Assembly (NCBI GenBank): GCA_010405405.1
Contig: MU004234.1
Coordinates: 540,993-604,992 of the forward strand
DNA: 64,000 bases
Source: Microthyrium microscopicum
Lineage: Eukaryota
Reading direction: 5' to 3'
Shown here: one piece after another, positions 1 through 16,560 of the stretch
How positions within the stretch are numbered: the first letter of the stretch is position 1
Layout of the letters: each line of letters begins with the position of its first letter
Notes under the pieces: generated by a model
The model's database searches: none
Seen by the model: the letters and a program-made list of their open reading frames with translations, nothing else
What the model was told of the DNA's origin: nothing
Translations under genes and position numbers: made by a program

Positions 1-152
1 CGCCATCGTATTGCATCGCTTTCATAGCTTGTATTGCTGGTCGAATGTTATGGTGCCCATCGAATAGAATGGGCCTATAACATACGACCTACTTTCGAGC
101 AAATGCTTAACTTGACCCTTCTTCTTCAACTTATGCTAACATCTTACAGGCA

Positions 153-1358
153 ATGGCCATGACCTCCTGCTGCGGAGACCAAGCGGGTCGGTGTGATGTT
201 CATCGACCAGTGCAACCGCTGGCGCCAACTGCATTGACTTGCGAAAACTACAAATACAGAAAAAACCCTGAACATCACTTGCTCAACGTGCCAACCGAGA
301 TTCGTCTACTCATCTGTGAGAATCTCTCGCTTGCTTCACGTTGCGCCCTCGCACTTACCTGCAAGGGGCTAAAAGATGAGCTGTCACTAGAATTTTGGCC
401 GAGCCTAGATACAAATCATACGGAGATGGTAAGCTTTTCCTGTTCCGAGCCCGCTCCCCTCGAAGCCGTACGAATATACCAAAACCCGTGGTGGTTGCTA
501 ACACTTTCAATGGCTCCCATGGCACGCGCTTCAAATCAAATGCTGTGGTATCCATTGACCTACCAAATGCATTCGCTTCCAACTTTTTCAATAGGCTTGC
601 ACGAATATCATTGTGTGATCTTGTACTAACACATTTGCCAGGACATGTTCTTGAATATGTTACGAAAGGACATTCCAGATACATTCGTTTGCGGCGGCTG
701 GGACGGCTGTCACCAGCTCGAATATGCGCCATATACGCTCAGCGTTGACGGTCCCAGTCTTGGAGCCTACCCAAGCACGCCAGTCCATGGCCGCGACCTG
801 GCATTCGACAATTTCTATCATGCCCCAGCCACGCATATCCAGCGCTGGAAAGAAGACCAAATCTGCCCCGAATACTTTTACTGCAGCACCACTCTCACCT
901 TCCACGCTGGAGATTCACAATACCTGGGGAGTGTGAAGTACTTCATCAACGAATTTGAAGGTCGCAACTATCTATTCCGGAAATACCGTCTACCGATCGT
1001 GGAAGGCAAGCCAATCACTATTGTATCCAACGCTGGATCCAATAGCCCAGTAGGCATCGAAATGTGCAAACACAACAAACTCAAATGGCTCATGAAGCGA
1101 GCGCTACCTCCAGTCTTCCTGAATGGTCCAGCATTCCCCAACGGTACCCTGGCGTGCTGGACTGGCCGGACACTTATGCAAGATAGCTTCATCGTTCTCG
1201 ACCGAAGCCTGGGAATATTTGGGGCCACGCGAAAGGTGCACACGTATGAGTGTGACTGCGGTGCTTTTGCTGAGATCAAAGATGTGGAGAATATAGAGGA
1301 TACTCATGCCGAATGTGTTTTTGCTACACCGCTTAAGGAGTCAATGGATTCGCAGTAA
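153..1358 (+). CDS. F-box domain protein, Cys/His-rich family, paralogue 1 (exons 153-428, 642-1358)
   Basis: F-box-like segment LLNVPTEIRLLICENLSLASRCALALTCK. Phase-0 intron 429-641 (GTAAGC...TACTAAC...CAG) joins ORF 153 to ORF 645 in frame. Colinear motifs are shared with three paralogues at 14.6-19.4 kb. Confidence 0.8.
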
Positions 1359-1749
1359 TAACGACACTCTCTCATCGACTGCTACATTAGTCATCGTAGC
1401 TTTCGGGAGTATTGTCGGAATTACACGTACAGAATAGACTTTATGCTCCATCTCATCCTGTGGCTGATTTCGCATCTAATATCCAACGTGATCGCTGTTG
1501 TGTGCGGCACGCTACTCATTGACTGGTAAAATAAGGACTGCATAATGAATTATAGTATATCACAGCCAGCGAAGCTGCTGGGGAGAAGACCACTATTCAT
1601 AAAATCCATTGATTGTTTGCGTCAGTATCTGACTTGTAGAAACACATATGACTCCAATATCTACCAGCCGACCCATGATACTCTGCCATAACTCCATTTT
1701 CAAAACCGAGTAACCCCATACAACAACCCCCACTACGATAAACTCACAC

Positions 1750-2868
1750 TCACAGCTTAGCAGTCAACCTATTCTCCCTCAAAAACTCCCCCGCCTCCTT
1801 CGCCGCCTCCTGCGCCACCCTTACAAAATCAATCACTGGCGCCACCAGAATAATATCATGCGGCGCACCCTCCTTCACCACCAACTGCACACTCGCGCCC
1901 TTGGCTCTGAACTCCTCCGCAATCTGCACATTATCATCATACAACACCTCCGCGCGTCCCGTCTGGACGAAGATTGGTGATTTGCTTTCAAAGGCGTTGC
2001 CGAGTGGTGTTAGGTACGGATCCATGGGATCACAGCCTTCAGAGAACGTGGACGCGCCCCAGTGTCCGAATGTGGGGCCAAGGTAGTCGGTGGAATACTG
2101 GGGAGAGCTGGAGATGGAGGTAATGTCTAGCGCGGCGTGCACGTTGACCCAGGGTGACCAGAGCCACACGCAGCCGGGCCACGGGAGACCGAGCGCTTTG
2201 CCGTGGTCGTGGATGTAGCGGAGAAGTGCGAGGGCGAGGTTTCCGCCTGCTGAATCACCGCTGATGGTAATGCGGGATGGAGGGACGCGGAGCTTGTCTG
2301 TCAAGTGCATATATGCGCTCACAGCATCTTGGAGTGCTGCTGGGAAACGTCCGCCGGCGTTGCTGGAAAGGCGGTAGGCTGGTGCGAGAACGTGCGTGAT
2401 CCGGCTATGTTTGACGAATGTGCGGGTTGTGAAGCCCAAGTCCGCATCGCGCGCTGCGCCGATTACGTAGGCGCCGCCGTGGAAGTGGAGGACGACATCT
2501 GCGTCGTCGACTTGGCTGCGTTGGAGGGCGGAGGGTGTCCAGACGGCGCCGATTTTCGTGGGCCGGATGCTGGTGTCTGCGAGGGGGCCTTTGTAGGCCC
2601 AGTTTCCTTGTGGGTTGATGATGGTGAAGCGGTCGCCTTCAACGCCGGGTTCGAGGGAGAGCTTGGTTTTTGTGCGGACGGTGGAGGAGTGTGCGAGGAA
2701 GGACTTTACGATGCGCATGCGCAGGGCTTGGGAGAAGGTCCATGATTTATGTGGGCGGCCGACGCGGAAGGTGTAGAGGAGGACCCAGATGGGAAAGCGG
2801 GTGAGTTCGTAGACGACGGCGAGGAGGGCGTAGACGGCCTTTATGGGTTGGGTGGCGAGGATGGGCAT
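1750..2868 (-). CDS. Alpha/beta hydrolase, HSL-like esterase/lipase with N-terminal hydrophobic anchor
   Basis: HFHGGAY oxyanion motif, GDSAGG nucleophile elbow, C-terminal GAPHD His. First ATG (MPILATQ) at 2868; intronless. Confidence 0.9.
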   Translation of the reverse strand: MPILATQPIKAVYALLAVVYELTRFPIWVLLYTFRVGRPHKSWTFSQALRMRIVKSFLAHSSTVRTKTKLSLEPGVEGDRFTIINPQGNWAYKGPLADTSIRPTKIGAVWTPSALQRSQVDDADVVLHFHGGAYVIGAARDADLGFTTRTFVKHSRITHVLAPAYRLSSNAGGRFPAALQDAVSAYMHLTDKLRVPPSRITISGDSAGGNLALALLRYIHDHGKALGLPWPGCVWLWSPWVNVHAALDITSISSSPQYSTDYLGPTFGHWGASTFSEGCDPMDPYLTPLGNAFESKSPIFVQTGRAEVLYDDNVQIAEEFRAKGASVQLVVKEGAPHDIILVAPVIDFVRVAQEAAKEAGEFLRENRLTAKL

Positions 2869-2923
2869 GTTGGTGGTGGAGTAGCCTTGCGGTTCACGAT
2901 GGGGTGGATGGTGAGACCGTCGA

Positions 2924-2986
2924 CAGTTTTGACGGCAATGGAGGCAGTTTCGACGACGATGGACGCAGTTTTGACGACGTCGACGA
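2924..2986. repeat. Three imperfect 21-bp tandem repeats upstream of the hydrolase gene
   Basis: cagttttgacggcaatggagg / cagtttcgacgacgatggacg / cagttttgacgacgtcgacga. Confidence 0.75.
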
Positions 2987-3919
2987 TTTTCACAAGAAGC
3001 AAAGGCGGGCCAAATCAATCAAGAAGAGAAACATACCTACACTTCATATACCACCCAAAGCATGTTTGTGCTCCTTTCGGCCGTTCACAAGCTTACAGCG
3101 TAGCCAGCAGTACCAATGCCCTTTCACAGATACTGTGTGCTCCGCGACATTGATTGATACCGAGGCTGGGGGATGATCAGTGACACGGGCTAGCACGGCG
3201 CAAAGTAAGGTCTACTAGGAATAGCGTGGATAAATTGCGGAGTAACGCCGTAGCATTTTGATATGAATTCAATGGTCTTTGCGAGTCAATTGTCGAGTTT
3301 ATTGGATGGAACCCTGTTCGTTCATGGTTCTTTGGTGGGTCTCAGGCGTGCAGTTGTCTGGTGAAGCTTGAAAATATTTCAAAGAGTGAGCGCTATGGTG
3401 CGTTCACGTAGCGAAATCAGCAGCGAAAAGAGGCAGCATGTTTGACTATCTTCACAAATTGAATGGAATACTTGTAGAAGGATGGAGAGAAGGTTGCGAG
3501 AGGTTCAGAAGTTTCAAGCGGTGGTTGCAGCCACGTTGCTCATGCACGTCACCCTGCTAGTCTTTTACGCCATGCCTCTCGCGTGCATGCTTGATATCTC
3601 TACGATGAAGGCATGGGTAGGTATAAAATACGACCGTAAGAATTATTGTTGGATAACTTGTCAAGAAAGCCTTCGATTTTTAAAGCGTAGCTGGAAGCAA
3701 GATAATAATGAGGTCGGGGTGTGCGACATACCACGAATTAGAGCAGTTATTCCAACGATCAAGAATCAAGATCATTGACTAAGGTATTTCTAGCTACTCA
3801 AACAAAATCCGTCGTAGATGTCACACTCAAAGCATCTTATCCTGAATCAACATACGGGGTCAAATAACAGCTCACTAGCCAATCACACATTCGATGAACC
3901 GTTCGTTGAAGTGAAGTGC

Positions 3920-6655
3920 TTAGACGGATACATCACGACGCATGTCCGGCATGACCGATCCACTACGATCATGCTCCTCCTCTAGAGCCTCAAGCTCTTT
4001 CATAGCATTGGTGAGGAACTTGTGCTGAGCAACAAGCTTCTGACGTTCCTGAACCTTCGTTGGGTCTTGAGCGAGCATCAGCTCCCAGTGGGATTTGTTG
4101 GCAACTAGGAGAGTTAGTATTGCAAAGAAAAGCTAGAGGACGTACTTACTGTTGTCAGGATCCTTTACTCCTAATTCCTCCTCAATTCGATCTTTCAGAG
4201 CTGGTAAACCTCCAAGCAAATCCGCTTCGACCATGAGAATCACATTCTCTACAAAGCGAGTCGCGGCGATGCTATAGTACGCTTTAACCTTAGCCATGAC
4301 CTCGATCTCACGATCATAAGGATCGGCGCCGATTTTGACGCGGAACTTCTCAGACTCAATTTCTTTGCGCTGCTTGTCGTCGAGACCGAATTCTGTGTCC
4401 CAGTCAGGGTGTTCAGCCTGGTAGAGTTGGCGGGCTCGCTGCTCATAGCGAGCTTTTTCGATGGTGGTAAGCTCCTTAACGGTCAACTGATCTAGAAGTT
4501 GCTTATTGGCGATGACGGGAGTGAAGTTCTCACGAGCAAATGCACCGATTGCTTTGTCGACTTGAACTTTGACGAGGTCGTGAACGAAGTTGCGAGTGAT
4601 AGCGTCCATCGAATCATGTAGTGGGGTACCACGCTATGGACCACATACGGATTCGTGAAGAACGCCTTTGGCGAGAGATGCTGACATCTGCTTGTCAATG
4701 GCTTTGAACAGGGTCTTGACTGGCTTGTCCCAAGACTTGAGCGTGGAGAGAATGATCGCGTTAAGCCCGTTTGGGTTCACCTCTCCAGGGAGCCCGGGTA
4801 GCTGGTACTTGTCGATGGCGATCTTGAGGCTCATTGGGGTGAAGCGACTACCCACAAGTGGTTGATTCACGGTCCCACGCGATGGTGTTTTTACTGGTGA
4901 CCATCCCGTAACAACGATATCATCGTCGTCATCTTCCACAGTCGCCTGACGATGATTTTTGTTCTTTTGGGGAGTCGTAAGGCCTCCATCTACTTTGCGA
5001 GCCTTGCTGGGTGAGACATCCGATTCACCATTGCGCTTGCGCGGCGAAATTGAAGGCTCACGTGAGGCTCGACCTGCAGCAGAAGCGACCTCCTCAAGTC
5101 GTTTGCCTTTTATGGGGCCAAGATCTGCGCCAACCGTAATCTTGGGACGAAGGTCTTCAAGGATGGATTTCTTCAGCACATCGATGTGTTTAGTGGCGCT
5201 GTCTCGCACATCGTTCGAAATAGCTTGCTCTTCATGCGCAGCTTTCATTTGCACAATTTGAGCGAAGTTCTGAACAATCTTGGTGACCTCGAAATATGCA
5301 TGCTTGGGAGGCTCCGGACATTTGGCCAGTCGTGCGTTGATGAGTTTGAGCTGTTGCTCAACACCAAATTGGATTTCTGGCAAGCACTGTAAGGCTAAGC
5401 CGAGAAGATTAATTGACAGTGCGGAAGCGAGGTTGCCAATACCGAGCAGATCAGTGTAGATGTTGAAGTCGGAGGACCATTCTGGTGAGTCGAAGTATTT
5501 GACTTCATTGAGACGAGCCTGTTCCGAGGAGATATGAAGTTCCTGCTGAGATCGTAATTTGCAAACTCGATAGCCCAACTCACGCCTATACTTCTCACCG
5601 GAGAGTACTTTGACCTATCTTATTTAGTAATTGTTCACTAGCAGTTGAATGGAATAGAATACTTACCCAGTCCTTGACGACATCACCACCCACAGCCATA
5701 CGATCGGGCTTTGTAAGTACACCCATGCAACGATGGTTGACTTTCATTCTATTGACAACGCTGGACGCCTTGGAGTTCTGGATGTCGTTCTCCATAGAGA
5801 TGACCAGAAGCACGATTGTCTTTTCTTCCTGAATGTAAGACTCGGCTAGACGCTCGACAAAGTCCACGATTTCTTGACCTCCTTCGTCGGTTTGCGAGAT
5901 GATGCCAGGCAAATCAACGAAGGAAAGATTTGGCAAACTGTTGCCACGAATTTCGATAATCACACGATTTGGAGAAAATGGCTAGCAGTGTTTAGTATCG
6001 CAACTCAATAACGAGCTATCAGTTGACTTACTGCCTCATTCGTATCCACTGTGAAGCCAGATCGGAAGGACTCTACTGAGTGGCTGGGGTTCAGAATAGC
6101 AGCTTGAGCATTATAGATGGCAGACTGCAAAGCGTCTTTGTTGTTCACCTCAGCAAATTTCTCAATGTCCAATGGATGATCACCACGCTCAGCCCAAGGG
6201 TAGAAACGGCCCGGAGTTGCGTCCGGATTGTACGCATACGGTCGACGCAGAGACACTCGAGCAATCCATTCCTCGGCGGAGTCTTGAATCAAGTTTATTT
6301 CCATAGGACAGCGGGTGCAAGTATTGGTATTGCGGGGTACGGAGATTTCGCTCAGAGCTTCGACGAGCGAGGACTTTCCCGAAGATTGATCGCCAATCAT
6401 AGCAATTTTTGGGATTGTGATATTGGCGATGGCGTCAATACCAGTGTGGTGCAAGTTGTTAAGGCATTGGAACAACTTCTTCATGTCGCTACCAAGGGTC
6501 TGGACAGCAGGATTGGAATGATCGACGATTTCTGTAGACGACATTGTGGTTGGAGCTTCGGAAGCTCGAGCGAGAGATGGTGAAGGACGAGTGGGCAACT
6601 GAACGGTCTCTCGACTGCTCTCTCCACGAGGGAAAGTATGACTATAACGAGTCAT
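3920..6655 (-). CDS. Dynamin-superfamily (Mx-like) large GTPase; exons 6655-6032, 5981-5667, 5614-4150, 4104-3920; one in-frame TAG at 4636-4634 (recoded gene or recent pseudogene)
   Basis: G1 GDQSSGKSS, G2 TCTRCP, G3 DLPG, G4 TKPD and a GED-like C-terminus (AYYSIAATRFVENV...LAQDP...ERQKL). Three canonical GTAAGT...TAG introns keep the frame. ORFs 4634..5578 and 4133..4609 are in the same frame, separated only by one TAG. Confidence 0.88.
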
Positions 6656-8504
6656 AATGGCAAGCGTTCAACGAACAACAGAAGAACGGATTGGAAGTCA
6701 AATTCAAGATGAAAAAGAAGGTTCAAAAGAAAGTGGTAAATGAAAGAGTTGGTGTTAGGGAAGATGAAGTGGAGAAGAAGAAGTGGAGGAGGGGTAGATT
6801 TCATGTGTTAGCTGAAGCCTAGAGCGGCCTCAATCCAATGGAGGCAGTTGCCTCGACAAGTAATGGCTTTCGAGCTTAACACACCGCTAGCCTCTTGTAC
6901 TTCCTGGGATAGGTACTCCAAACCTACCCAATTGGGCGATCGGTTGCCATAGCGGCGCATCGAGCGTTCCAAAGAAGGGAATAAACAAGGGAAAAAGTTT
7001 CTCAGGCATCGTGCTGAATGTTCACTGCGTCCAACCCGATGATATACGTCAGTGCCATAGGCCACGGTCCATTCAAGTCATGATGCGCAGGAGTGAGGGT
7101 ATCACTTCAACGATGCAAGCTGTGGTGATCCGATCGACCAAGCAGATAGAGCTGAATTCGTGGGAAATTGTGGTTTTATTGTCGGAACTATAAATAGTGT
7201 CGATAAGGCCAATCTCGTCGACATTTGACAGAGAGCTTCTTACACGCGTCCGCAGGCACTGGTGAGCTGTAGCTCTTGTTCAGGCAGACAAGAAGACGAT
7301 CAGTCGCCGATTTGATCGATGTATTTCTCCAAGCTCTTTCTCATTATTAAATAGAACATACGCTCTGAATGATAGAGCGGATGTGGTGGTCATGTCTGTT
7401 GTATGCAGAGGATGGAGTGAAGTTGGGAAGAGATGCGGGATCTTATCTAATCTCGGAATTACATCCGAAAGAGATGCCAGCAAATGCAGCGTGGCAGCAT
7501 GGATAGCAACAAATGGGCATGGATAGACTGGTGTGACAGAAGGCGACCTGTGCAGATTGGCCAATGGCAACAAAAGATGGAACAATGGAACAAAGGCGAG
7601 AATGGTCATTCGGGTATCCAAGTCATTTTTCAGAAACCGGAGTGGATCACGGGCGCTGTCGGGGGTGCTGCGAGAGGTGAAACGGATTGGATGGTCAGAA
7701 GAAGAGACGAAAGAAAATGCTTCAAAACGACAGGCGTGTCAGGATTTGCAAAGCAGGGCAGGGGAGTAGCTAGCTGCAGTGAGACTAGACCTAATAATTG
7801 ACTTGGGGCATCATGGTCAAAGGCTGATAATTGTTCAAACAATCACTCAGTACTCCAAGGAATTGACAAAGAATTTGAAGCGAAAGGTCAGTGGGTTCTG
7901 TCCCCAGTAAATCGCTAAATATCCCCAGTAATTCAGGGTAAACGAACCAGGAGCCCGTTCTATTCTCATCTTCCAAGGTTCTCACGGAGCCAGCACTTCT
8001 CATGTTTATTTCCACCTTCTTCTAGACCTCTATCTCCCAACTTACATCGCATATCCCAGTTGGTTCCTTACTCGCGCGGGACGCTTACCTGCTGCTTATT
8101 TGGGAGTACAAAGATCTCATCGTCGTGCCAACTTTCGACGCTTGTTGCATTTCATTCCGAGCACTCCGAGAGCCAATCCACAATCCACAATCCGCCCCGC
8201 CAACATCCGCAGTGCACCGCCAATCCAGTCGCCAGTCGCAACTGACCAACGCCCCCAACGTCAGGCCCAGCGCCCTGCAACTTCTCACACCAGTCTACCA
8301 ACCACTGCATCTCCAATCACTCTCCCTGCAAATCCTCCAACTTCCTCCTCCATTCCCTCTATCCTCAATCCCAATCCTGGCCTCAACATATCTACCATCA
8401 TATCCTCAACCGCTTCGCCCTGACCGCGACACTCGTCGCTGTGCTCTCACCTCTCCTCCCAACCACCCCATCCAGGGATCCGCAACACCCAACAAAGCGC
8501 CACA

Positions 8505-9220
8505 ATGCCGTCACACGCCCAGCACGCCCACGCCGAGCTACACCGCCGATACTGGCAACGCAGCATCCTCATACCCCTCTGGACCCAACAATTCCTACTC
8601 CAATTAACCGGCACCATAATCTTCTACTTCGCTGTAACAATATACTGGGCGGGTGGAGCAAACCACGGCAAAGGCCCAAAAGTCGACCGCCGAGAACAAG
8701 CAATCCTCGGGTCTTTCTTTGTCCTCTATTTGTCACTGCTGCTGGCAACACTGGGCGAAGTGCTGCTCTACTGCGTTAATGCGCTGCAGCCAAAGCGCTA
8801 TCTAATCAGCCAACTATTAAAACTCATCGCCAGTTCTGGTGTCTGGGCTACATTAATCGTCTATCCCTATGTCATCAAGAACCCCATCGCCAGCCGCACA
8901 CAAGTCGCCATTGGCATGGAAGCAATCTTCGCATGGCTACAGTCCGTCATCCCCCTCCACTTCCCCCCTCCCACACATTTACTAACACATATCATAGAAT
9001 CCCCATGCTATCCTCCCTCGTCCACGCCGGTCTCGTAGCGCGCGAAGAATGGGTAATCAAACGCGAACTCGACGACCGCCTCCTCCACGCCTCGGAAATC
9101 ATCGCCGCCGCCCCAGCAGCCGAAGTCGCACAATCAGAGCGCACACCTCTCCTAGCCACCAACAATCTCGGCTACGGCGGCCGGCCGCGCAGTAGAACTA
9201 TTGGCGGGAGTCGCGTATAG
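8505..9220 (+). CDS. Small multi-pass membrane protein of unknown function (exons 8505-8941, 8998-9220)
   Basis: About four hydrophobic segments. Intron GTCCGT...TACTAAC...TAG joins ORFs 8505 and 8933 in frame. C-terminal ERTPLL acidic-dileucine-like sorting motif. Confidence 0.7.
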
Positions 9221-10341
9221 CATCGCGTGCCATCTTTTTTTGTCTATGGAGCAGCATCTACTTTAGAACGATAACCTTAACGATAATGAAAAAACACCTT
9301 TACATCATACAAACGGATACCCACGACACTTGGGACGACGCGCAAGATATTTAGAAGGAGGTTGGTGAGGAGTGTTTGGATTTAGAGAAGTGTGCCCGCG
9401 ACTGGAATTACCCTGTGGAGGAACGCGGGACGGGTGTGGGAAGAAGCATTGTTTTGTGCACAGAAGGCGTATTTGATACCTATTGATTTACACATCTGCG
9501 GTACCTCGAGAGAAAGAGGGAAGCCGCGAGATGGCTGGCGAGTTGGTTGGAATACCCCATTAGAATCTGGCTTATATCCTATAGCATTCGATAATCTGGG
9601 ATCATTGTAGAACTGGTTGAAGAAGGGTTGGCGAAACTTGAGACCTCAGCTCTTTAATTGAGCGATGAGACGCTTCTCCTGTGTATATGAACCTTCGTAC
9701 TATTCTACCTACAGTAGTACCTACCTACCAATGAAAAACAAAAACACATTTAAACTACAGTATCTACTCCTATTATTCACATTCCCCCTTCTGCCCCATA
9801 TAAATATTCTCCAGTTATCACTTCCTCAGTGTACCTGGTACCGTAACTCATTATCCCGAAAATTCGCCGCACTCCGATATCCCTACGGAACCAAACCTAA
9901 CGCAGCCAAGATCATCCAAAAAGCTAACCATTCTGCTGCATCCCGCCATTCGATGATGCTGCCCCAAGTCCAATCTATCTCTGGAAAACACGTTGTCGAT
10001 CGGGTGGCGGGGAGCTTGCTGGACAGTTGTTTTCGGCAATGAAATGCCGTGATGCTGTGAGAATGCTGGACAGATGGGGTCTAGAATGAATTGGTGCAGG
10101 GTGTTTGATCTTTTGGATGCGTTGTAACAATTTTAATGAGTTATGGATACAAGATAACTAGGAGAATGATGGAGGAGAAGCAAGAGATATCTCTAATGGA
10201 CGGGAATGCAACTCATGAATTAAGTAGTCATTTCATCGACAATCAAATGTGCTCGCTAATTCAAGTCCGTTCATTATCATATCATGAAAATCATCTTCAT
10301 AAGTAAACATTAAATCAAATGGGTATCTAAAACTTGCAAAA

Positions 10342-12442
10342 TCAATACGCCCGCTCTGCGAACCGTACGCAGAGGACTCCTCGTTGTCGCGCCTGAATTA
10401 CTACCAGTGCATGTACTGTGAGTAGTAGTAGGGTGCTCCCGCTCACTACACGCGGTCTTGAACGTCCACTCTCAACTACGAAATCTAGTGCTGCCAGGGA
10501 CAGTAATGGTATGGCGAGTAATGGACGCGAGCTGAGTGGCGCACAGGGCATGGTGAGGGACAGGTATTTTCCTAGGAACAATATGATTTTGATCACGGCA
10601 GTGAGGGCAGGCTGCCATACTTCGAGAGTTGATGGGCGTGGTGGAGGTGGTGGGAGCGCGAGTTGAGGTGATGATGGACGTGAGTGTGAATGGTGAGTGG
10701 GACTAAGTGCTGGAGGTGGATGTTTGCGGCGGATGATGGCTGATGTTGTGGTGGGCGAGACAGGCCGTTCAGTTTCGTCATGGGCCGGACTATGATGCCT
10801 GTGTTGCTGAGGTGCGAGGGCTTTGTTGGGTAAGAGGCCAGGATGAGTCTTGGAGCCAGACAGCTTACGACCAAACTGCGTGCGCGGATGGGGAGAGGGT
10901 GAGGCGGCGGAGATGCGGGAGCTGCTGCGCGCATCTTCCTGGGTTGCGCGCGAGGAGAAGACTTCGTCCATGTCCTCGAGGTCTTGCGCAGCGTGGATAC
11001 CACGTAGAATTTCGTCTGTGGAGGGCCGCTGGTCAGGATCGATGGCGAGAAGGCGTTTCAAGAATTTCCAGAGCTCTTCAGGGAGATCGGTGCGACCGCG
11101 ACGCTCATCGTCGTTGAAGCCACGCCAGGACATGATTTCGGCGCGAAGTTCATCAATGTCTTCATTATCTTCGTTGATTTGATCGGCGCTACTGTAGGGG
11201 AGAGTGCCAAAGCACATGAAGTGCAAGATCATTCCCAATGAGAAGACATCGGATTTAACTGTGAAGTTGCCGAAAGGGCCATTCGGGGTATCGCGACTTA
11301 GGACTTCTGGTGCGCAGTAACTAACTGTTCCAGTGGCTCCTGTACCTGTACGGGCGGAATCTGTGCCTTGGACTTCGCCGAAATCACTAAGTAACGCGCG
11401 CATTTTGCCGCCAGTCATGTGGAGTAAGACGTTATTCGGTTTGATATCACGGTGTATGAAGCCATGTGTGTGAAGGTAGTGAAGACCAGAGGTAATGTCC
11501 TTGAAGAAAGTATAGATCTCTTCAAAATGCATTCTTCGAAGACCACTGCTAGAATCTGGTCGATCCATCTGACCTTTTGATCTTCTTCTTAGGCGCTCCT
11601 TTAATTCCCATGTTGACGGAGTTGTCGTTGAAGGCCCCAGTACAAAATTGTGTAAGTCTCCCGAGTCGCAGTATTGTTGTAAGATGAACGCGCACGGTAC
11701 ATTGCTTGGACCAAAATTGTTGATCTTGAAATCTTCCAACCAGACATGACGATATGAGACCAAATTTGGATGGCTTAGGTTTTGCAGTGTTTGTACTTCG
11801 ATGAGCACTTTCTCCAACCATGCATGATCGTCTCCAACAGGGACGCGCTTGCATGCGAATTGGCCCAATGATACACCATCAATCATATGTGTAACCAATA
11901 GCACGACACCTTTACCACCTCTACCAAGCTCCCTCTCTTCTTTAAAGAAAGTTTTGAAGTAGTTGGAACTAAATGCTTGCTTCGATATCCCATGTCCATT
12001 TGTAGCTCGAGGTTCGCTTGCCACGAACTCTGCGCCGCTTGGAGGCACGATTGGTGGTTCTGGCGATCTACGGTGTTCTGGCGAGTCCAGCCTTCGGCGT
12101 GGAGAAGACGGCCTGGATGAGCGACCACCAGCATCTGGCAAAGCCTGCCGTAGCATATTAAAGTATGATGGATCCATATAACTTGTGGACGAAGGTATGT
12201 CGGATGAGACATGTTCAGCATGCTGGGCTGGATCGTCGAGGAAAGGGCGGTGACAGGCTGGACATCGTTCGAGCTTCGGGGTTGTAGATCGAAGGGATAG
12301 CTGACGAGAGCGAGGATCGTAGACTACGACGGTGGACTCATGGCGTCTAGATGAATTTAGCATATTTTATGATAATGGAGAGCTTGACGTCGTACAGAAC
12401 AATTTCGCGAGAGTGGTCTGGAGCGTATGGAATGAGGGACAT
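10342..12442 (-). CDS. IKS1: IKS1-type Ser/Thr protein kinase (exons 12442-12396, 12346-10342)
   Basis: GRGGKG, FACKRVPVGDDHAWL, HRDIKPNN, DFG and APE motifs; C-terminal hydrophobic segments. N-terminus MSLIPY...REIVLRH is restored by intron 12395-12347. Confidence 0.88.
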
Positions 12443-13128
12443 TGCCCTGCTTCGTTCTTCTTCTGCCATACTGAAGGGCAGATTATGAGTTGGGCTTCAA
12501 GATCATCGCCACAGAGCTATGCTGAAATTCAAATTGTCGATTGTGTTGTTGAGTTATGGCTGAGTTGAGGGGGAAGATGATGGTGTTTACAAGGTGGAGA
12601 GACAAGGATCATGTGGTCAGGCTGTCAGGGTTATGTACGGATGATTGAGTGACATCAACTCAGTGTTTACCTGAGATCTTGGTCGTCATGTCATTGAATA
12701 ATCTTTATCAGGTAGGACAAATGACATGATCATTTATGATTTAAATGTGTTGTTGTTTTGAAGGACATCGTGCTGGTAACCAATGGGGATAAATTCACCA
12801 CAAGGCTGAAGTTATGCGATATCGAATTGTTGTCGCGGAAGATTGTTACCCTCTCGAAGCTCTCCGTATGCGCCTCCAGATAAATTCCGGAAGTTCGAGT
12901 AATCTTTTCATACCAGATAAATCGAGATTGTTAGAAAAAAATCAAGAGTCAGAGAGCTGAAAACTCAAGAATAGCAACAATGGCGCTAGCAATGACCCCT
13001 GTCCACACAATTCCCCTATTTTTGGAAGAGCTCCAACTTCATCCCCAGTCGCGTGCCTGTTACTTCGAGCTCCAACAACTAACATCTTCCATCTGTCGTT
13101 CTCGGGGACAGGCCAATTCACCGTTATA

Positions 13129-14433
13129 ATGGCGTCTACCGTACGGTTGACGCGAACTGCCTGCTCACTCTTACTGATCGCATCCGTTCTATACTTTTCA
13201 TCCGTATCAGCAGAGAAAGCTCATCCATCATACCCAAGCTTGTCAAGCTTGTCATCGCATGAGATTGAGTCGCAACTCCAAGTATGATCCCCACTAGCAA
13301 AATCGAACATGAAACTAACCGCTTGACTCTAGAGTTGTCCTATAGTTCAAGCGCTGAATGTAGAAAAGCTCGCTGAGAGCTCCGAAAGCTCCACCATCAC
13401 CCAACAACTCTTTGCCTTCTTATTTCCTGGCAGCCCAGCTGTCAACGCACTACTCGCGACTCTCTACATCTCCGGTCCTCCAAACTTCCTCCTTGCATTA
13501 TGTCCTCCTAACATCGATCCTTCGTCTCTCAGTGTGATGGTCGCCTTCGCCGTGGGGGGGTTGATGGGTGACACACTCTTTCATCTACTACCAGAAATAT
13601 TCCTAGGGGAAGACTCGCCCGAGCATGTACGATTCGTCATGGTTGACCCACGTAAGAACCTCCTACTAGGCTTGGCGATAATGGTTGGTTTCATGACCTT
13701 TGTTGCCATGGACAAAGGACTACGAATCGCAACTGGAGGAGAAGGCCACGACCATGCCCATGGACACAGTCACGCGACTGCAGAAGATGAATTGGCCACA
13801 ACCACCGGCGCAGAGATCAAAGACGGCCCAAAGACGCGACAACGAGGCAAGAAGACTGCTGCAAATGGAAAAGCCGTGGTCGAAGTACCTAAAGAGGACA
13901 AGTCATCGAGCATCAAGCTTGCCGCATATCTGAATCTCATTGCTGATTTCACGCACAACATTACAGATGGTTTGGCCATGTCAGCTTCCTTCTATACTTC
14001 ACCAACTATCGGCGCTACCACAACCATGGCTGTCTTCTTCCATGAGATCCCGCACGAAGTCGGCGATTTTGCTTTACTTATCCAATCTGGTTTCTCGAAA
14101 CGTGCGGCCATGGGCGCTCAATTCATCACAGCCGTCGGCGCATTGCTTGGGACATGCATAGGAATCGCGGTGCAAGAATATGGCGGATCTAGCGCTAGTG
14201 TTAATGCAGCAGGAGGCAATGCCGTGGGAATTCTGGGTACGAGTCTGCAATATGGAGATTTGTTGCTACCGTTCACCGCTGGAACATTCTTGTATGTGGG
14301 CACGGTGGCAGTCATTCCGGAGATGCTCGAGGTTGATAAGAGCGCGAGTAAGTTTGCCCAGCTGAGGACGATGGCAACACAGTTCTTGGCTGTTGCAGCT
14401 GGAGCGGGCATCATGCTTGCGATCTCTTGGTAA
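13129..14433 (+). CDS. YKE4: ZIP-family zinc transporter, YKE4/ZIP7 type (exons 13129-13281, 13333-14433)
   Basis: Signal-peptide-like N-terminus, His-rich loop HDHAHGHSH, ADFTHNITDG and HEIPHEVGDF motifs; phase-0 intron 13282-13332. Confidence 0.9.
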
Positions 14434-14631
14434 GATGTTTGTTTTTATATGATGTTGCGCATAGCTTCTTGACATATATTTCACAACTGGGGTGGCAATA
14501 TGAAATAAAGCGTGTCTATCATTTCCTCCTCCGAAAGAACCATTTCTATCAAAACGTACTGAAAGGATCGATCAGAGACATCTAGTCCGAACGTCAATGG
14601 GCAAATAGCATTTGCCCGGTCCAGGATCTAA

Positions 14632-15660
14632 TCAATTAAGTCTCTCCAGTGTTTCCGATCCCAACAACAACCCCTGGAAGCAATCTTTCATCATCTCCAA
14701 TGCATCCCACCGACGATCGCTTCTACTCGGACCCACAAGTGACGTACCAAACACGCAGGTGGTGTGGCCATCATAGTTCGGATCCAGATCATAGCTTGTC
14801 GCAAACGCGCCGCATTTCTTGCACTCATAATAGTGCTTCAGTCGATATGGGCGCTCTCCAATCAAAGTAATTCCCCAGTCCCGAACTGGCCCTGTCCAAT
14901 CCGCCAGGATCTCGCGATCATAGTATGAGCCATGTGTATGGTCACGCATCAGCCATTTTAGTGTCGCGTGTGAGCAGAGTTCAATATTGAGCCCCTGTTC
15001 TTCTGCCGCATTGACGGTTAGACCAGCTCGTAGGATGGGTAGTCGGTATTCTCGTTGGATCACAGGGCCTATAGTCGCATTGGAGGGGCTTTTGAGACGG
15101 TAGGTGACGTTTCCGGCTTCTCTACCGCCTGGGAATTGGAAGAGCAGTGTGGTTTTGCACCGGAAGAGAGTAGGACATATTCGTCCTTCAAGGAACGATT
15201 TGATCTGAGCGGACGAGATGTGATAAAAATTATCAAAAGTGTAACCATCGTTACCGTTAGTTGGTTGTTCCAACGCAGCATGGAGAATCTTATGTTCGCT
15301 GCAAACAGCTTTCTCTGGGATGTCCTGTTGTAGAAGCTCCAAGAATTCTAGCTTGCTCTTGCCAGCGGTGTGCGAGGTAAGCTTGGGCCAATATAGATCA
15401 GAAAGCTTGTGCTTTAGTTCTTTGTTGACGAGTGCGAGCGCACACTTGGATGCGAGAGGGAGGTGGTCGCATACCATGAGTAGCAGCTCGTTTGGTATAT
15501 TAAGAAACTCGCGGCTAGGACTTGCGTTTGGCAGACTGACAAATTGGCGGATGGTATCCTTGCTGAGTTCATAGTCTTGCGTGGCATAGCGAGATAGGAT
15601 GGTTGAGGCAGGCCGATGGACACGACATTGATGCGCACGCTCTCCGCAGCAGGAAGTCAT
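14632..15660 (-). CDS. F-box domain protein, Cys/His-rich family, paralogue 2 (intronless)
   Basis: MTSCCGERAHQCRVHRP N-terminus; FLNIPNELLLMVCDHLPLASKCALAL F-box; FDNFY, ELCSH and YECKKCGAF motifs. Confidence 0.85.
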   Translation of the reverse strand: MTSCCGERAHQCRVHRPASTILSRYATQDYELSKDTIRQFVSLPNASPSREFLNIPNELLLMVCDHLPLASKCALALVNKELKHKLSDLYWPKLTSHTAGKSKLEFLELLQQDIPEKAVCSEHKILHAALEQPTNGNDGYTFDNFYHISSAQIKSFLEGRICPTLFRCKTTLLFQFPGGREAGNVTYRLKSPSNATIGPVIQREYRLPILRAGLTVNAAEEQGLNIELCSHATLKWLMRDHTHGSYYDREILADWTGPVRDWGITLIGERPYRLKHYYECKKCGAFATSYDLDPNYDGHTTCVFGTSLVGPSRSDRRWDALEMMKDCFQGLLLGSETLERLN

Positions 15661-15837
15661 AGCGAATTATTTGCGTGGTGGAGTGTTGAGTAAGTTGTGC
15701 GGGCGTCAGGGATTGCTTTGTCAGTCTTGCAATGTAAATGTTCCCGTAGTCAATTGCAAGGTAATGAAAGCCTCTCCGAGTATTGACAATGAACGAATAA
15801 GGAAAAGAAGGACTTTGCAGATGATTGGAAATAAAAA

Positions 15838-15877
15838 GTGGTGGTGGTGGTGATGGTGGTGGTGGTGGTGGTGATGG
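15838..15877. repeat. (GGT)n microsatellite, imperfect
   Basis: gtggtggtggtggtgatggtggtggtggtggtggtgatgg. Confidence 0.9.
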
Positions 15878-16560
15878 ATTCGGGAGGCTCAGAGGTTTGT
15901 TGTTGTATACTAGTAAGCTGAACAAATGTAGCAGTAGGCGAGTTGAAATCATAGGTAGAACAAAGCGAAAGCTGTAAAAATCATCGAGGTGCGCTCAAAG
16001 TCACAAGCAGGTGATCCATGAAAAGCAAAACAAGTCCAAAGACTCCGATCACCTCAATGTCACCGCCAGCGGCTAACAGCTCATCCACCTAAATACTTGG
16101 GTAGCTGAGGGAAATGATAGTGCCTTGGCCACTTGTTAGTTGTTAAAGATATAGCCGATATGAGGTCGAAAGTATCTCGAGCATATGGCGACTAGTATCG
16201 CCATAAGAAAACATGATAACCGACATCGAGCTTCTTCAAGGTTATATATCAGAATGCGAATTTTCTCGAAGACGGTTTAACTAATATGTATAGCCCTTAA
16301 AGTTAAATGCCATCAGTAGACGTAGCCACGTATTCTACATAAGTCAGGTATTGATACAGAAGTAATTCAAGAAATTTTGATATGAACGACGTTTCATTCC
16401 GCTTTATGTTCTAGGTTGTTAACTAGCAAACATGACCATGAGAATCATAGAACAAACAATTGTAGCAAATGCATTTGACTTTGCCTCCAGAATCCCAAGC
16501 CCACATACATGACCCACAAGTGCTGCTCTGCTTCCCCTATACTTCATGACAGGAACCCAA

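Follow-up and report, generated by a model that had tools for sequence, protein, structure and literature searches.

A single in-frame TAG lies within a minus-strand gene for a dynamin/Mx-like GTPase in the Dothideomycete Microthyrium microscopicum, and the question it raises is whether the codon simply ends the protein or is in some way passed over. The gene occupies 6655..3920 of the window, by which we mean the whole 64-kb stretch of DNA analysed, and has four exons. We hold it probable that the locus is a plain, young nonsense allele of this GTPase gene, with the observations explained without any need of programmed rescue; A-to-I editing, translational readthrough, a split gene and an artefact were weighed against this reading.

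All parts of the gene lie on the minus strand. Exon 1 (6032..6655, 208 codons) opens with the ATG at 6655..6653, encodes an N-terminal extension and the first half of the GTPase domain with its P-loop (Pfam Dynamin_N, E 4.7e-12), and has its end set by the cDNA joint 5981/6032, while exon 2 (5667..5981, 105 codons, delimited by cDNA joints) completes the GTPase domain (Dynamin_N, E 1.9e-11). Exon 3 (4150..5614, 488 codons and one base), which holds the TAG, encodes the middle domain (Pfam Dynamin_M, E 8e-12), a Ser/Lys/Pro-rich, disordered insert of about 70 residues and the helical stalk, and exon 4 (3920..4104, 61 codons and the TAA at 3922..3920) encodes the GED-like C-terminal end, followed by the 3' untranslated region (3814..3919) up to the limit of the assembled transcript. 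The exons are separated by intron 1 (5982..6031, 50 nt, GTAAGT..TAG), intron 2 (5615..5666, 52 nt, GTAAGT..TAG) and intron 3 (4105..4149, 45 nt, GTAAGT..TACTAAC..TAG). The spliced coding sequence of 2589 nt contains stops only at codon 640 and at the terminal TAA, and no further stop or frameshift was found in it. Public annotation divides the locus between two proteins of 639 aa (P0002, made of 208, 105 and 326 residues) and 214 aa (P0003), the latter including exon 4 and bearing the UniRef name 'GED domain-containing protein'.

The family assignment rests on several lines of evidence. The exon translations contain GDQSSGKS, the T of TRCP, DLPG and TKPD, which we take to be G1, G2, G3 and G4, respectively, of a dynamin-type GTPase domain, whose Dynamin_N matches span exons 1 and 2 (DLPG and TKPD falling in exon 2). 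A middle domain, a helical stalk and a GED-like C-terminus are indicated by the Dynamin_M match, the structural model and the UniRef name, although exon 4 on its own gave no Pfam hit and a GED hit was not obtained with Pfam. Among solved structures the closest relatives are Mx or dynamin proteins: the best PDB sequence matches are Mx2 and Mx1 (E 1e-29 to 1e-25, with Mx2 4whj_A at the top with E 1e-29), and the 43 distinct PDB sequences with E of at most 0.001 are all named dynamin-family proteins. The AlphaFold model of exon 3 (pLDDT 84.6, pTM 0.70, with residues 171-242 below pLDDT 50) has its best folds in the PDB, by Foldseek, in Drp1, dynamin, Mgm1 and Mx (MxB), with probability 1.00; the top 12 PDB matches are all dynamin-family chains, and E is at most 0.001 in one of them only.

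Relatives in sequence are distant. The clade of the gene is fungal and uncharacterised, its named relatives, which share no more than 33% identity with it, belong to Dothideomycetes apart from one Sclerophora assembly. An exhaustive homologue search found none above 40% identity, the value of the closest relative. Word-index searches over the near and longer length ranges and a profile search, all aimed at close orthologues, yielded nothing beyond the gene's two annotated products and one homologue already in the alignment (P0090). A degenerate pattern of the ten codons around the stop, searched in metagenome contigs, gave two loci, both chance matches in unrelated sequence. The gene encodes a divergent Mx/dynamin-like GTPase specific to its lineage, and its transcript is still made and properly spliced.

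The TAG itself (4634..4636), codon 640 of the spliced coding sequence and residue 327 of exon 3, stands in the frame context LHESVCGP-TAG-RGTPLHDSM, and it is real as far as independent assemblies can tell. It is read both by DNA contigs (run X4, word depth about 1137) and by a spliced contig from another study (run X5), with no differences. The X5 contig spans 3814..6900 with no other letters and no gaps relative to the window, except that it skips exactly 4105-4149, 5615-5666 and 5982-6031, all of them GT..AG on the minus strand; the exact absence of the three introns shows the run to be cDNA. Two further runs (X6 and X7, depth about 3) yielded no more than fragments, all matching the window at 100%; the one that comes closest ends at 4643, seven bases before the TAG, and these runs supply no independent evidence from another strain. 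The gene model, the G1-G4 motifs and the splice sites given in the initial annotation are upheld by the cDNA joints and the exon translations, and its claim of a single in-frame TAG at 4636..4634 is borne out in both DNA and cDNA.

These contigs also dispose of the trivial explanations, namely that the TAG is an error of sequencing or assembly, that an unrecognised intron covers the codon, or that a duplicated gene has undergone RIP, a group to which we give practically no credence. A sequencing error, which had been raised as a competing explanation, would have to recur in X4 and X5, DNA and RNA-derived material of separate studies. Something can be said for an intron, as GTATGT at 4648..4643 looks like a donor and the 15 nt GTATGTGGTCCATAG are in frame; the cDNA contig, however, retains the TAG and is unspliced across 4150..5612, so that an intron removing the codon is ruled out. 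Among the candidate introns beginning at this GTATGT, the one of 15 nt, ending at the TAG, is too short and has no corresponding joint in the cDNA contig, and the next AGs, 82, 88 and 97 nt away, would shift the frame. RIP would account for the direction of the change, which on the plus strand reads CpA>TpA. It would also raise TpA/ApT, lower (CpA+TpG)/(ApC+GpT) and call for a duplicate partner, but the indices of the gene (0.59 and 1.25, respectively), next to 0.67 and 1.30 for the window, are normal by the usual thresholds, and the searches brought up no paralogue with more than 40% identity, so that this suggestion of the initial annotation is not supported. As far as contigs can show, the reading as an artefact is refuted.

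What the codon replaced can be read from the homologues. Of the 81 aligned homologues, 57 have W in the column of the stop, the remainder being Y (10), H (5), R (5), F (3) and C (1), and Trp stands opposite the stop in 85 of 143 pairwise homologue alignments, so that the initial annotation was right to look for a tryptophan at this position. Since Trp occupies the position in most homologues, the stop likely arose by TGG>TAG, a single G>A transition, as judged from the alignments. Beyond it, all 222 codons are open, and the best-conserved residues of the family are still in place: downstream of the TAG, 10 of the 10 columns conserved at 90% or more and 18 of the 22 conserved at 70% or more are kept, compared with 21 of 24 and 39 of 56, respectively, upstream. 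The read-through product of 862 aa also falls within the range of the named full-length homologues (797-907 aa), while the truncated product has 639 aa. An intact downstream part is equally compatible with continued selection and with a mutation of recent date. The preservation of the frame and of the conserved residues is a point against a nonsense allele, in that selection on the downstream part may persist.

The transcript invites a similar remark. A spliced mRNA with a premature stop and an intron 485 nt downstream of it (intron 3) would be expected to be reduced by nonsense-mediated decay, and it nevertheless assembles in X5 at a word depth of 560.6, although contig depth is a poor gauge of expression. 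The presence of the premature-stop transcript as a deep, spliced contig is a second observation that sits uneasily with a nonsense allele.

A conserved downstream part would also be expected if the gene had been split, such that a 639-aa piece with the GTPase domain and half of the stalk assembled in trans with a GED piece of 214 aa, translated on its own from, according to the annotation, an ATG nine codons past the stop. Both pieces (P0002 and P0003) are indeed annotated as proteins. Both parts nevertheless lie on one continuous spliced cDNA contig, and a separate transcript start was not seen in the contigs. The downstream ATG has T at -3, an unfavourable context for initiation, and eukaryotic ribosomes reinitiate inefficiently once they have translated an ORF of 640 codons. 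Among the longer hits of the homologue search, no family showed the same split. We therefore rate a split gene as most improbable, a shade below readthrough.

Readthrough would have a near-cognate tRNA (Gln or Tyr) decode the UAG now and then, giving some full-length protein beside the truncated form. Its appeal lies in the intact downstream frame, in Tyr being the second commonest residue at the stop column (10/81) and in the base after the stop, which is C (UAG C), as C at +4 weakens termination. Weak termination contexts are described as raising readthrough in PMC9272376, and tobacco mosaic virus, with its UAG CAA UUA, shares with this gene a UAG followed by C and a long open frame behind it. 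The resemblance ends there: the stop is followed here by CGU GGU, which matches neither the viral hexanucleotide nor the leaky motif UAG CAR YYA given in PMC9272376, where UAG is also reported to be read through far less than UGA (3.2 vs 28.3 in a reconstituted system in the standard context). Moreover, the stop lies within a hairpin loop and not upstream of a structure, and no tRNA genes, hence no suppressor tRNA, and no Rfam matches were found in the window. Readthrough is accordingly very unlikely in our estimation.

The hairpin brings in the alternative that deserves most attention, restorative A-to-I editing of A4635 in sexual tissue, in which a Tad2/Tad3-like deaminase of the tRNA type would convert UAG to UIG, decoded as Trp, so that the 862-aa protein would be made in the sexual stage only and vegetative cells would produce the truncated form. 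The circumstances are suitable: an in-frame UAG interrupts an otherwise intact ORF whose transcript is present and spliced and whose downstream frame and conserved residues are preserved, and editing to UGG would restore the Trp of the homologues. The A also lies where a fungal editing site might be expected, in the apical loop of an imperfect hairpin (4605..4665, minus strand). Folding of the stop with 30 nt on either side gave an MFE of -17.1 kcal/mol with A4635 in the hairpin loop, and folding of the 91 nt of 4590-4680 gave -25.0 kcal/mol (z -2.22), a stability reached by 4 of 200 shuffles; positions 4635-4633 are unpaired with probability 1.00, and the stem pairs 4639-4629, 4638-4630 and 4637-4631 have probabilities of 0.97-0.99. 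Of the hairpin folded by hand in the initial annotation, the stem with its apical A thus stands, as seen in both MFE and pairing, and the 5-nt loop UAGCG turns out to be a minor alternative to a 3-nt loop AGC, closed by a U-G pair with probability 0.83. The loop letters U-A-G-C resemble what we take to be U33-A34-G35-C36 of tRNA-Ala; mimicry of an anticodon loop was considered and rejected, the 7-nt loop being only about 3% probable and the A-U pair that would need to open having a probability of 0.97. That the A occupies the apical loop of a hairpin whose folding surpasses that of 196 of the 200 shuffles, a structure favoured by the fungal editing enzyme, is a further observation at odds with a nonsense allele.

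How far this hairpin sets the site apart was assessed on the same mRNA by the published method with 30 nt on either side. Hairpin loops hold 7 of its 15 UAG triplets (47%), 33 of its 77 UA sites and 226 of its 678 A's, so that the position in a loop is not distinctive. A hairpin loop whose MFE reaches that of the target occurs at 4 of the 77 UA sites, and by MFE the target ranks second among the 15 UAG triplets. Overall, the hairpin exceeds chance only weakly. The sequence neighbours of A4635 add little: U at -1 and G at +1 and +3, on which the initial annotation relied, are all present, but the first two are automatic for any UAG codon, and only one of the five weak flank preferences of Fusarium graminearum editing sites (PMC4817773) is matched, by G at +3, with C at -3, A at -2, C at +2 and U at +4 not fitting.

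Other evidence weighs against editing. Position 4635 is A, unedited, in the X5 cDNA consensus, a weak argument in that this is one contig, contigs lose minor variants and the stage of the sample is unspecified. The initial annotation had proposed a search for other UAG-interrupted genes; within the 64-kb window, seven junctions, the target included, consist of a single stop flanked to either side by 120 or more open codons, and the only other TAG among them (45759, plus strand) has a translation that looks non-coding, leaving no other credible TAG-interrupted gene. What is known from F. graminearum cuts both ways. In favour of editing, 62.4% of its editing sites lie in hairpin loops (PMC4817773), most of the premature TAGs that editing rescues there go back to TGG, and some of the premature-stop pseudogenes are abundant in hyphae as well (PMC10776026). 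Against it, only some 9% of UAG triplets undergo editing in that species (PMC4817773), and the word 'dynamin' has no occurrence among the 71 F. graminearum editing-rescued pseudogenes in one supplement of PMC10776026. The host, finally, is a Dothideomycete, beyond the lineages with known editing. In the literature consulted (PMC11156358), A-to-I editing of fungal mRNA has been reported for no group other than Sordariomycetes and Pyronema, and examination of Aspergillus nidulans and Botrytis cinerea, of two other classes, gave a negative result. The Ame1-Tad3 interaction that enables editing arose within Sordariomycetes (PMC11087585). In favour of editing, which Pezizomycotina classes edit 'remains to be determined' (PMC11156358). 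We consider restorative editing of A4635 unlikely, though it is the foremost of the alternatives, and its fuller form, in which a third class of ascomycetes would possess stage-specific editing by a tRNA-type deaminase, with full-length GTPase in sexual tissue only, slightly less likely again.

With a host outside the lineages with reported editing and a hairpin that is not distinctive, the prior favours a plain nonsense allele. Under the nonsense allele, a genomic TGG>TAG change, a single G>A transition, would have made the substitution, and standard decoding would yield a protein of 639 aa that retains the GTPase domain, the initial helices of the stalk and the disordered insert but lacks the last 222 residues, with their four predicted long stalk helices and the GED-like end. 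Given this loss, a normal dynamin stalk would probably not form, and the truncated product is probably defective. The lesion would be young, because the downstream part has not decayed; that the mutation is recent is what we infer from this one isolate.

The two main readings differ in what they would mean. If the allele is plain nonsense, the annotated 639-aa and 214-aa proteins represent two halves of a single disrupted gene for an Mx-like GTPase. Were the stop edited, restorative fungal mRNA editing would extend to the Dothideomycetes, a very large class with many plant pathogens, of which this would be the first case, pointing to an independent origin or to a wider ancestry than now thought and bearing on the field's open question of which Pezizomycotina classes edit mRNA, as posed in the review PMC11156358. 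In either case, A4635 is one exact nucleotide to inspect in fruiting-body RNA-seq of Microthyrium microscopicum.

Compared with known systems, the protein shares the Dynamin_N and Dynamin_M domains with the Mx/dynamin superfamily (MxA, MxB, Drp1, dynamin 1, Mgm1) and differs from it in the extra disordered insert; the helices that follow the insert are presumably more numerous than in Mx, and the exon 3 model has just 9-12% identity to solved dynamin-family stalks, with TM-scores of 0.25-0.37. With the rescued pseudogenes of Fusarium and Neurospora (PUK1, AMD1 and the 71 PSC genes) the gene has in common a single UAG in an intact, transcribed gene, Trp in relatives at the stop, an A in a hairpin loop and an automated annotation that bypasses the stop, which in Fusarium is done with invented introns and in this gene by a division into two proteins (PMC4817773, PMC10776026). 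It departs from that set in its Dothideomycete host and in that the Fusarium cases are defined by retention of the TAG across species, whereas here there is one isolate and a cDNA contig that reads A at the site. With an ordinary unitary nonsense allele it shares everything, namely the same single transition at a Trp codon, a sole lesion and a transcript that is made, and the present data offer no feature to distinguish it from one; just the loop position and the well-kept downstream part suggest otherwise.

The minus-strand dynamin/Mx-like GTPase gene at 3920..6655 comprises four exons: exon 1 (6655..6032; Pfam Dynamin_N, E 4.7e-12), exon 2 (5981..5667; Pfam Dynamin_N, E 1.9e-11), exon 3 (5614..4150), whose start matches Pfam Dynamin_M (E 8e-12), and exon 4 (4104..3920), which ends in TAA. 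They are separated by introns of 50 nt (6031..5982), 52 nt (5666..5615) and 45 nt (4149..4105), the last of which carries TACTAAC. The spliced CDS of 2589 nt holds one stop besides the terminal one, the TAG at 4636..4634 (codon 640), so that the initial annotation was right in describing a gene with no other lesion; its translation around the TAG and its account of intact GTPase motifs are likewise correct.

Contigs from four public sequencing runs were compared with the interval 3700..6900. Those of X4, a DNA run that may be the source sample and so is not independent, cover all of it with zero differences at a word depth of about 1137. They are interrupted at 5159-5188, inside exon 3, where we observe a 9-letter loose end and a separate 39-nt record, the latter with a depth of 6.29 (versus about 1137); a bubble in the assembly graph may account for the break, or else a minor variant. 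In X5, a run of another study whose RNA label is only a guess, a single contig of 5192 nt (depth 560.6) spans 3814..6900 without one deviating letter or gap. As this contig omits exactly the three modelled introns, it is cDNA, and it follows that transcription and splicing of the gene match the model, that the TAG is retained in the transcript, and that no intron removes the codon, including one starting from GTATGT at 4648. Two ways of explaining the stop away are thereby refuted: a sequencing error, by the TAG in both the X4 DNA contigs and the X5 cDNA contig, and a hidden intron, by the lack of splicing there in the latter. The in-frame minus-strand segment GTATGTGGTCCATAG (4634-4648), which includes the TAG, has the consensus of a fungal splice donor at its start and AG at its end; it was rejected as an intron, being too short at 15 nt and unspliced in the X5 contig. 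Letter 2940 of the X5 contig corresponds to position 6900, and given its length the contig extends about 2.2 kb past the 5' end of the gene, reaching into or across the adjoining locus around 7900-9100, either as a single transcript or as overlapping ones assembled together. Runs X6 and X7, labelled as a different organism, gave seven short fragments at a depth of about 3, each 100% identical to the window and perhaps due to carry-over or to traces of the same fungus; the fragment nearest the TAG ends at 4643, and the codon is uncovered in both.

Only two near-identical proteins are found in the databases: P0002 (639 aa, [quoted passage not shown]), which corresponds to exons 1 and 2 and exon 3 up to the TAG, and P0003 (214 aa, BT63DRAFT_226521, "GED domain-containing protein"), which starts at a Met (ATG) nine codons past the TAG and extends through intron 3 to the TAA. 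These boundaries indicate that the public annotation cuts one gene into two at the TAG. That the 639-aa and 214-aa chains are made as two polypeptides acting in trans is very unlikely; one spliced X5 cDNA contig spans both halves.

Exon 3, with the TAG read as W, was the query of an exhaustive HMMER search that returned 459 proteins at E ≤ 0.001, the top non-self match having only 40% identity. As the initial annotation anticipated, the residue opposite the TAG is mostly Trp, both in pairwise alignments, where 143 of 148 matches span the site (W 85, Y 22, R 15, H 6, F 4, and more rarely L 3, gap 3, T 2, C 1, G 1, D 1), and in a MAFFT alignment of 81 homologues (W 57, Y 10, H 5, R 5, F 3, C 1). 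One G>A transition, from TGG to TAG, is accordingly the simplest origin of the stop. Among the 20 of 148 matches looked up, named relatives are Aulographum, Tothia, Cryomyces, Saccharata, Phyllosticta, Aureobasidium, Pseudovirgaria, Macrophomina and a Sclerophora assembly, and full-length proteins measure 797-907 aa; the predicted read-through form of 862 aa falls within this range, whereas the 639-aa truncated form lies outside it.

Judged from its sequence, the region behind the TAG is free of decay: the family residue is kept downstream in 10/10 columns conserved at ≥90% and 18/22 at ≥70%, and upstream in 21/24 and 39/56, respectively. A young mutation would be expected to leave the region this intact, and continued translation equally so; its state does not discriminate between them. 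Continued translation by readthrough of the TAG appears highly improbable, as the UAG CGU GGU context differs from the leaky UAG motif described in excerpts of PMC9272376.

The suggestion that the mutation arose by RIP finds no backing, with normal indices in the gene (TpA/ApT 0.59; (CpA+TpG)/(ApC+GpT) 1.25), similar to the rest of the window, and no paralogue closer than 40% identity in the databases searched; one plus-strand C>T requires no RIP. GC per kb over 1..16000 is 0.46-0.61, so this stretch holds no AT-rich block. The adjoining genes are ordinary, encoding an alpha/beta hydrolase (1753..3018, minus; Abhydrolase_3, E 1.1e-31), a protein kinase (10345..12366, minus; E 2.3e-41) and a ZIP transporter (13333..14430, plus; E 1.3e-57). 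Two plus-strand open frames, at 630-1355 (242 codons) and 8424-9035 (204 codons, membrane-like by eye), have no Pfam match. Besides the TAG at 4636..4634, six other single-stop junctions join long open frames in the 64-kb window (TAA 627, TGA 2743, TGA 8421, TAA 8777, TAA 35528 and TAG 45759); on inspection, the translation at TAG 45759 looks non-coding.

Among solved structures, Mx2 and Mx1 come closest by sequence (E 1e-29 to 1e-25). AlphaFold, run on exon 3 with an alignment (A1) of 81 of the 149 homologues, gave a model with pLDDT 84.6 and pTM 0.70; in the PDB this model is most similar to Drp1, dynamin 1, Mgm1 and MxB/MxA (Foldseek probability 1.00), with TM-scores of 0.25-0.37 and only one match at E ≤ 0.001. 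The TAG position is here a confidently predicted turn (block pLDDT 93) that links helices 296-318 and 331-364. Besides exon 4, a product stopping there would lack helices 331-364, 371-401, 434-469 and 472-481; we infer that it would be unable to build a normal stalk. Residues 171-242 of exon 3 (4889-5104, minus) form an insert, predicted to be disordered, of roughly 70 Ser/Lys/Pro/Asp-rich residues (pLDDT below 50), placed between the middle-domain helices and later stalk helices and flanked on both sides by long helices. The consensus of the homologues over this insert is KKRK-like and TP-rich. We take it to sit about where other dynamins have the PH domain, B-insert or L4 loop.

Restoration of the codon by A-to-I editing at A4635, the middle letter of the TAG, had been proposed from a hairpin with this base in its apical loop. 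The hairpin is borne out: 4590-4680 (91 nt) folds at -25.0 kcal/mol (z -2.22; 4/200 shuffles as stable), with A4635 unpaired at probability 1.00 in a predicted AGC triloop closed by a U-G pair (0.83). Passages of PMC4817773, whose method for fungal preferences takes 30 nt to either side of a site for folding, put the share of F. graminearum sites within hairpin loops at 62.4%. By this published method A4635 is again in a hairpin loop (-17.1 kcal/mol). The same holds for 7/15 UAG triplets, 33/77 UA sites and 226/678 adenosines of the same mRNA, among which the target MFE ranks second of the 15 UAG triplets and is equalled or bettered at 4 of the 77 UA sites; with loop positions this common, structure lifts the odds of editing only slightly. 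As for the proposed site preferences, the U at -1 and the G at +1 both occur but are dictated by the UAG codon. The G at +3 does agree, the only one of five weaker flank preferences listed in PMC4817773 to do so. A4635 is unedited in the X5 consensus transcript, which represents one sample; its stage is not given and contigs lose minor variants, so low-level or stage-specific editing could escape it. The TAG is probably a plain nonsense allele, a reading favoured by base rates, by the taxon, by the lack of editing in the cDNA consensus and by a hairpin that does not stand out; restorative editing is unlikely.

The host is a Dothideomycete, which settles the taxon that the initial annotation had left to be identified. 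A full-text literature search, covering passages of papers, yielded no report of A-to-I mRNA editing in Dothideomycetes; in passages of PMC10041177 they serve as a comparison for residue evolution only. According to sections of PMC11156358, sexual-stage A-to-I mRNA editing is reported in Fusarium, Neurospora, Sordaria and Pyronema and was not found in Aspergillus nidulans cleistothecia or Botrytis cinerea apothecia, and which classes edit "remains to be determined". No dynamin is among the 71 F. graminearum genes with premature TAGs, mainly from TGG, that are rescued by editing, as listed in one supplement of PMC10776026, passages of which describe some rescued genes as abundant in hyphae as well. 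According to passages of PMC11087585, editing is carried out by Tad2-Tad3 together with the cofactor Ame1, whose capacity for binding Tad3 is traced to an origin in Sordariomycetes, the system of Pyronema being thought independent.
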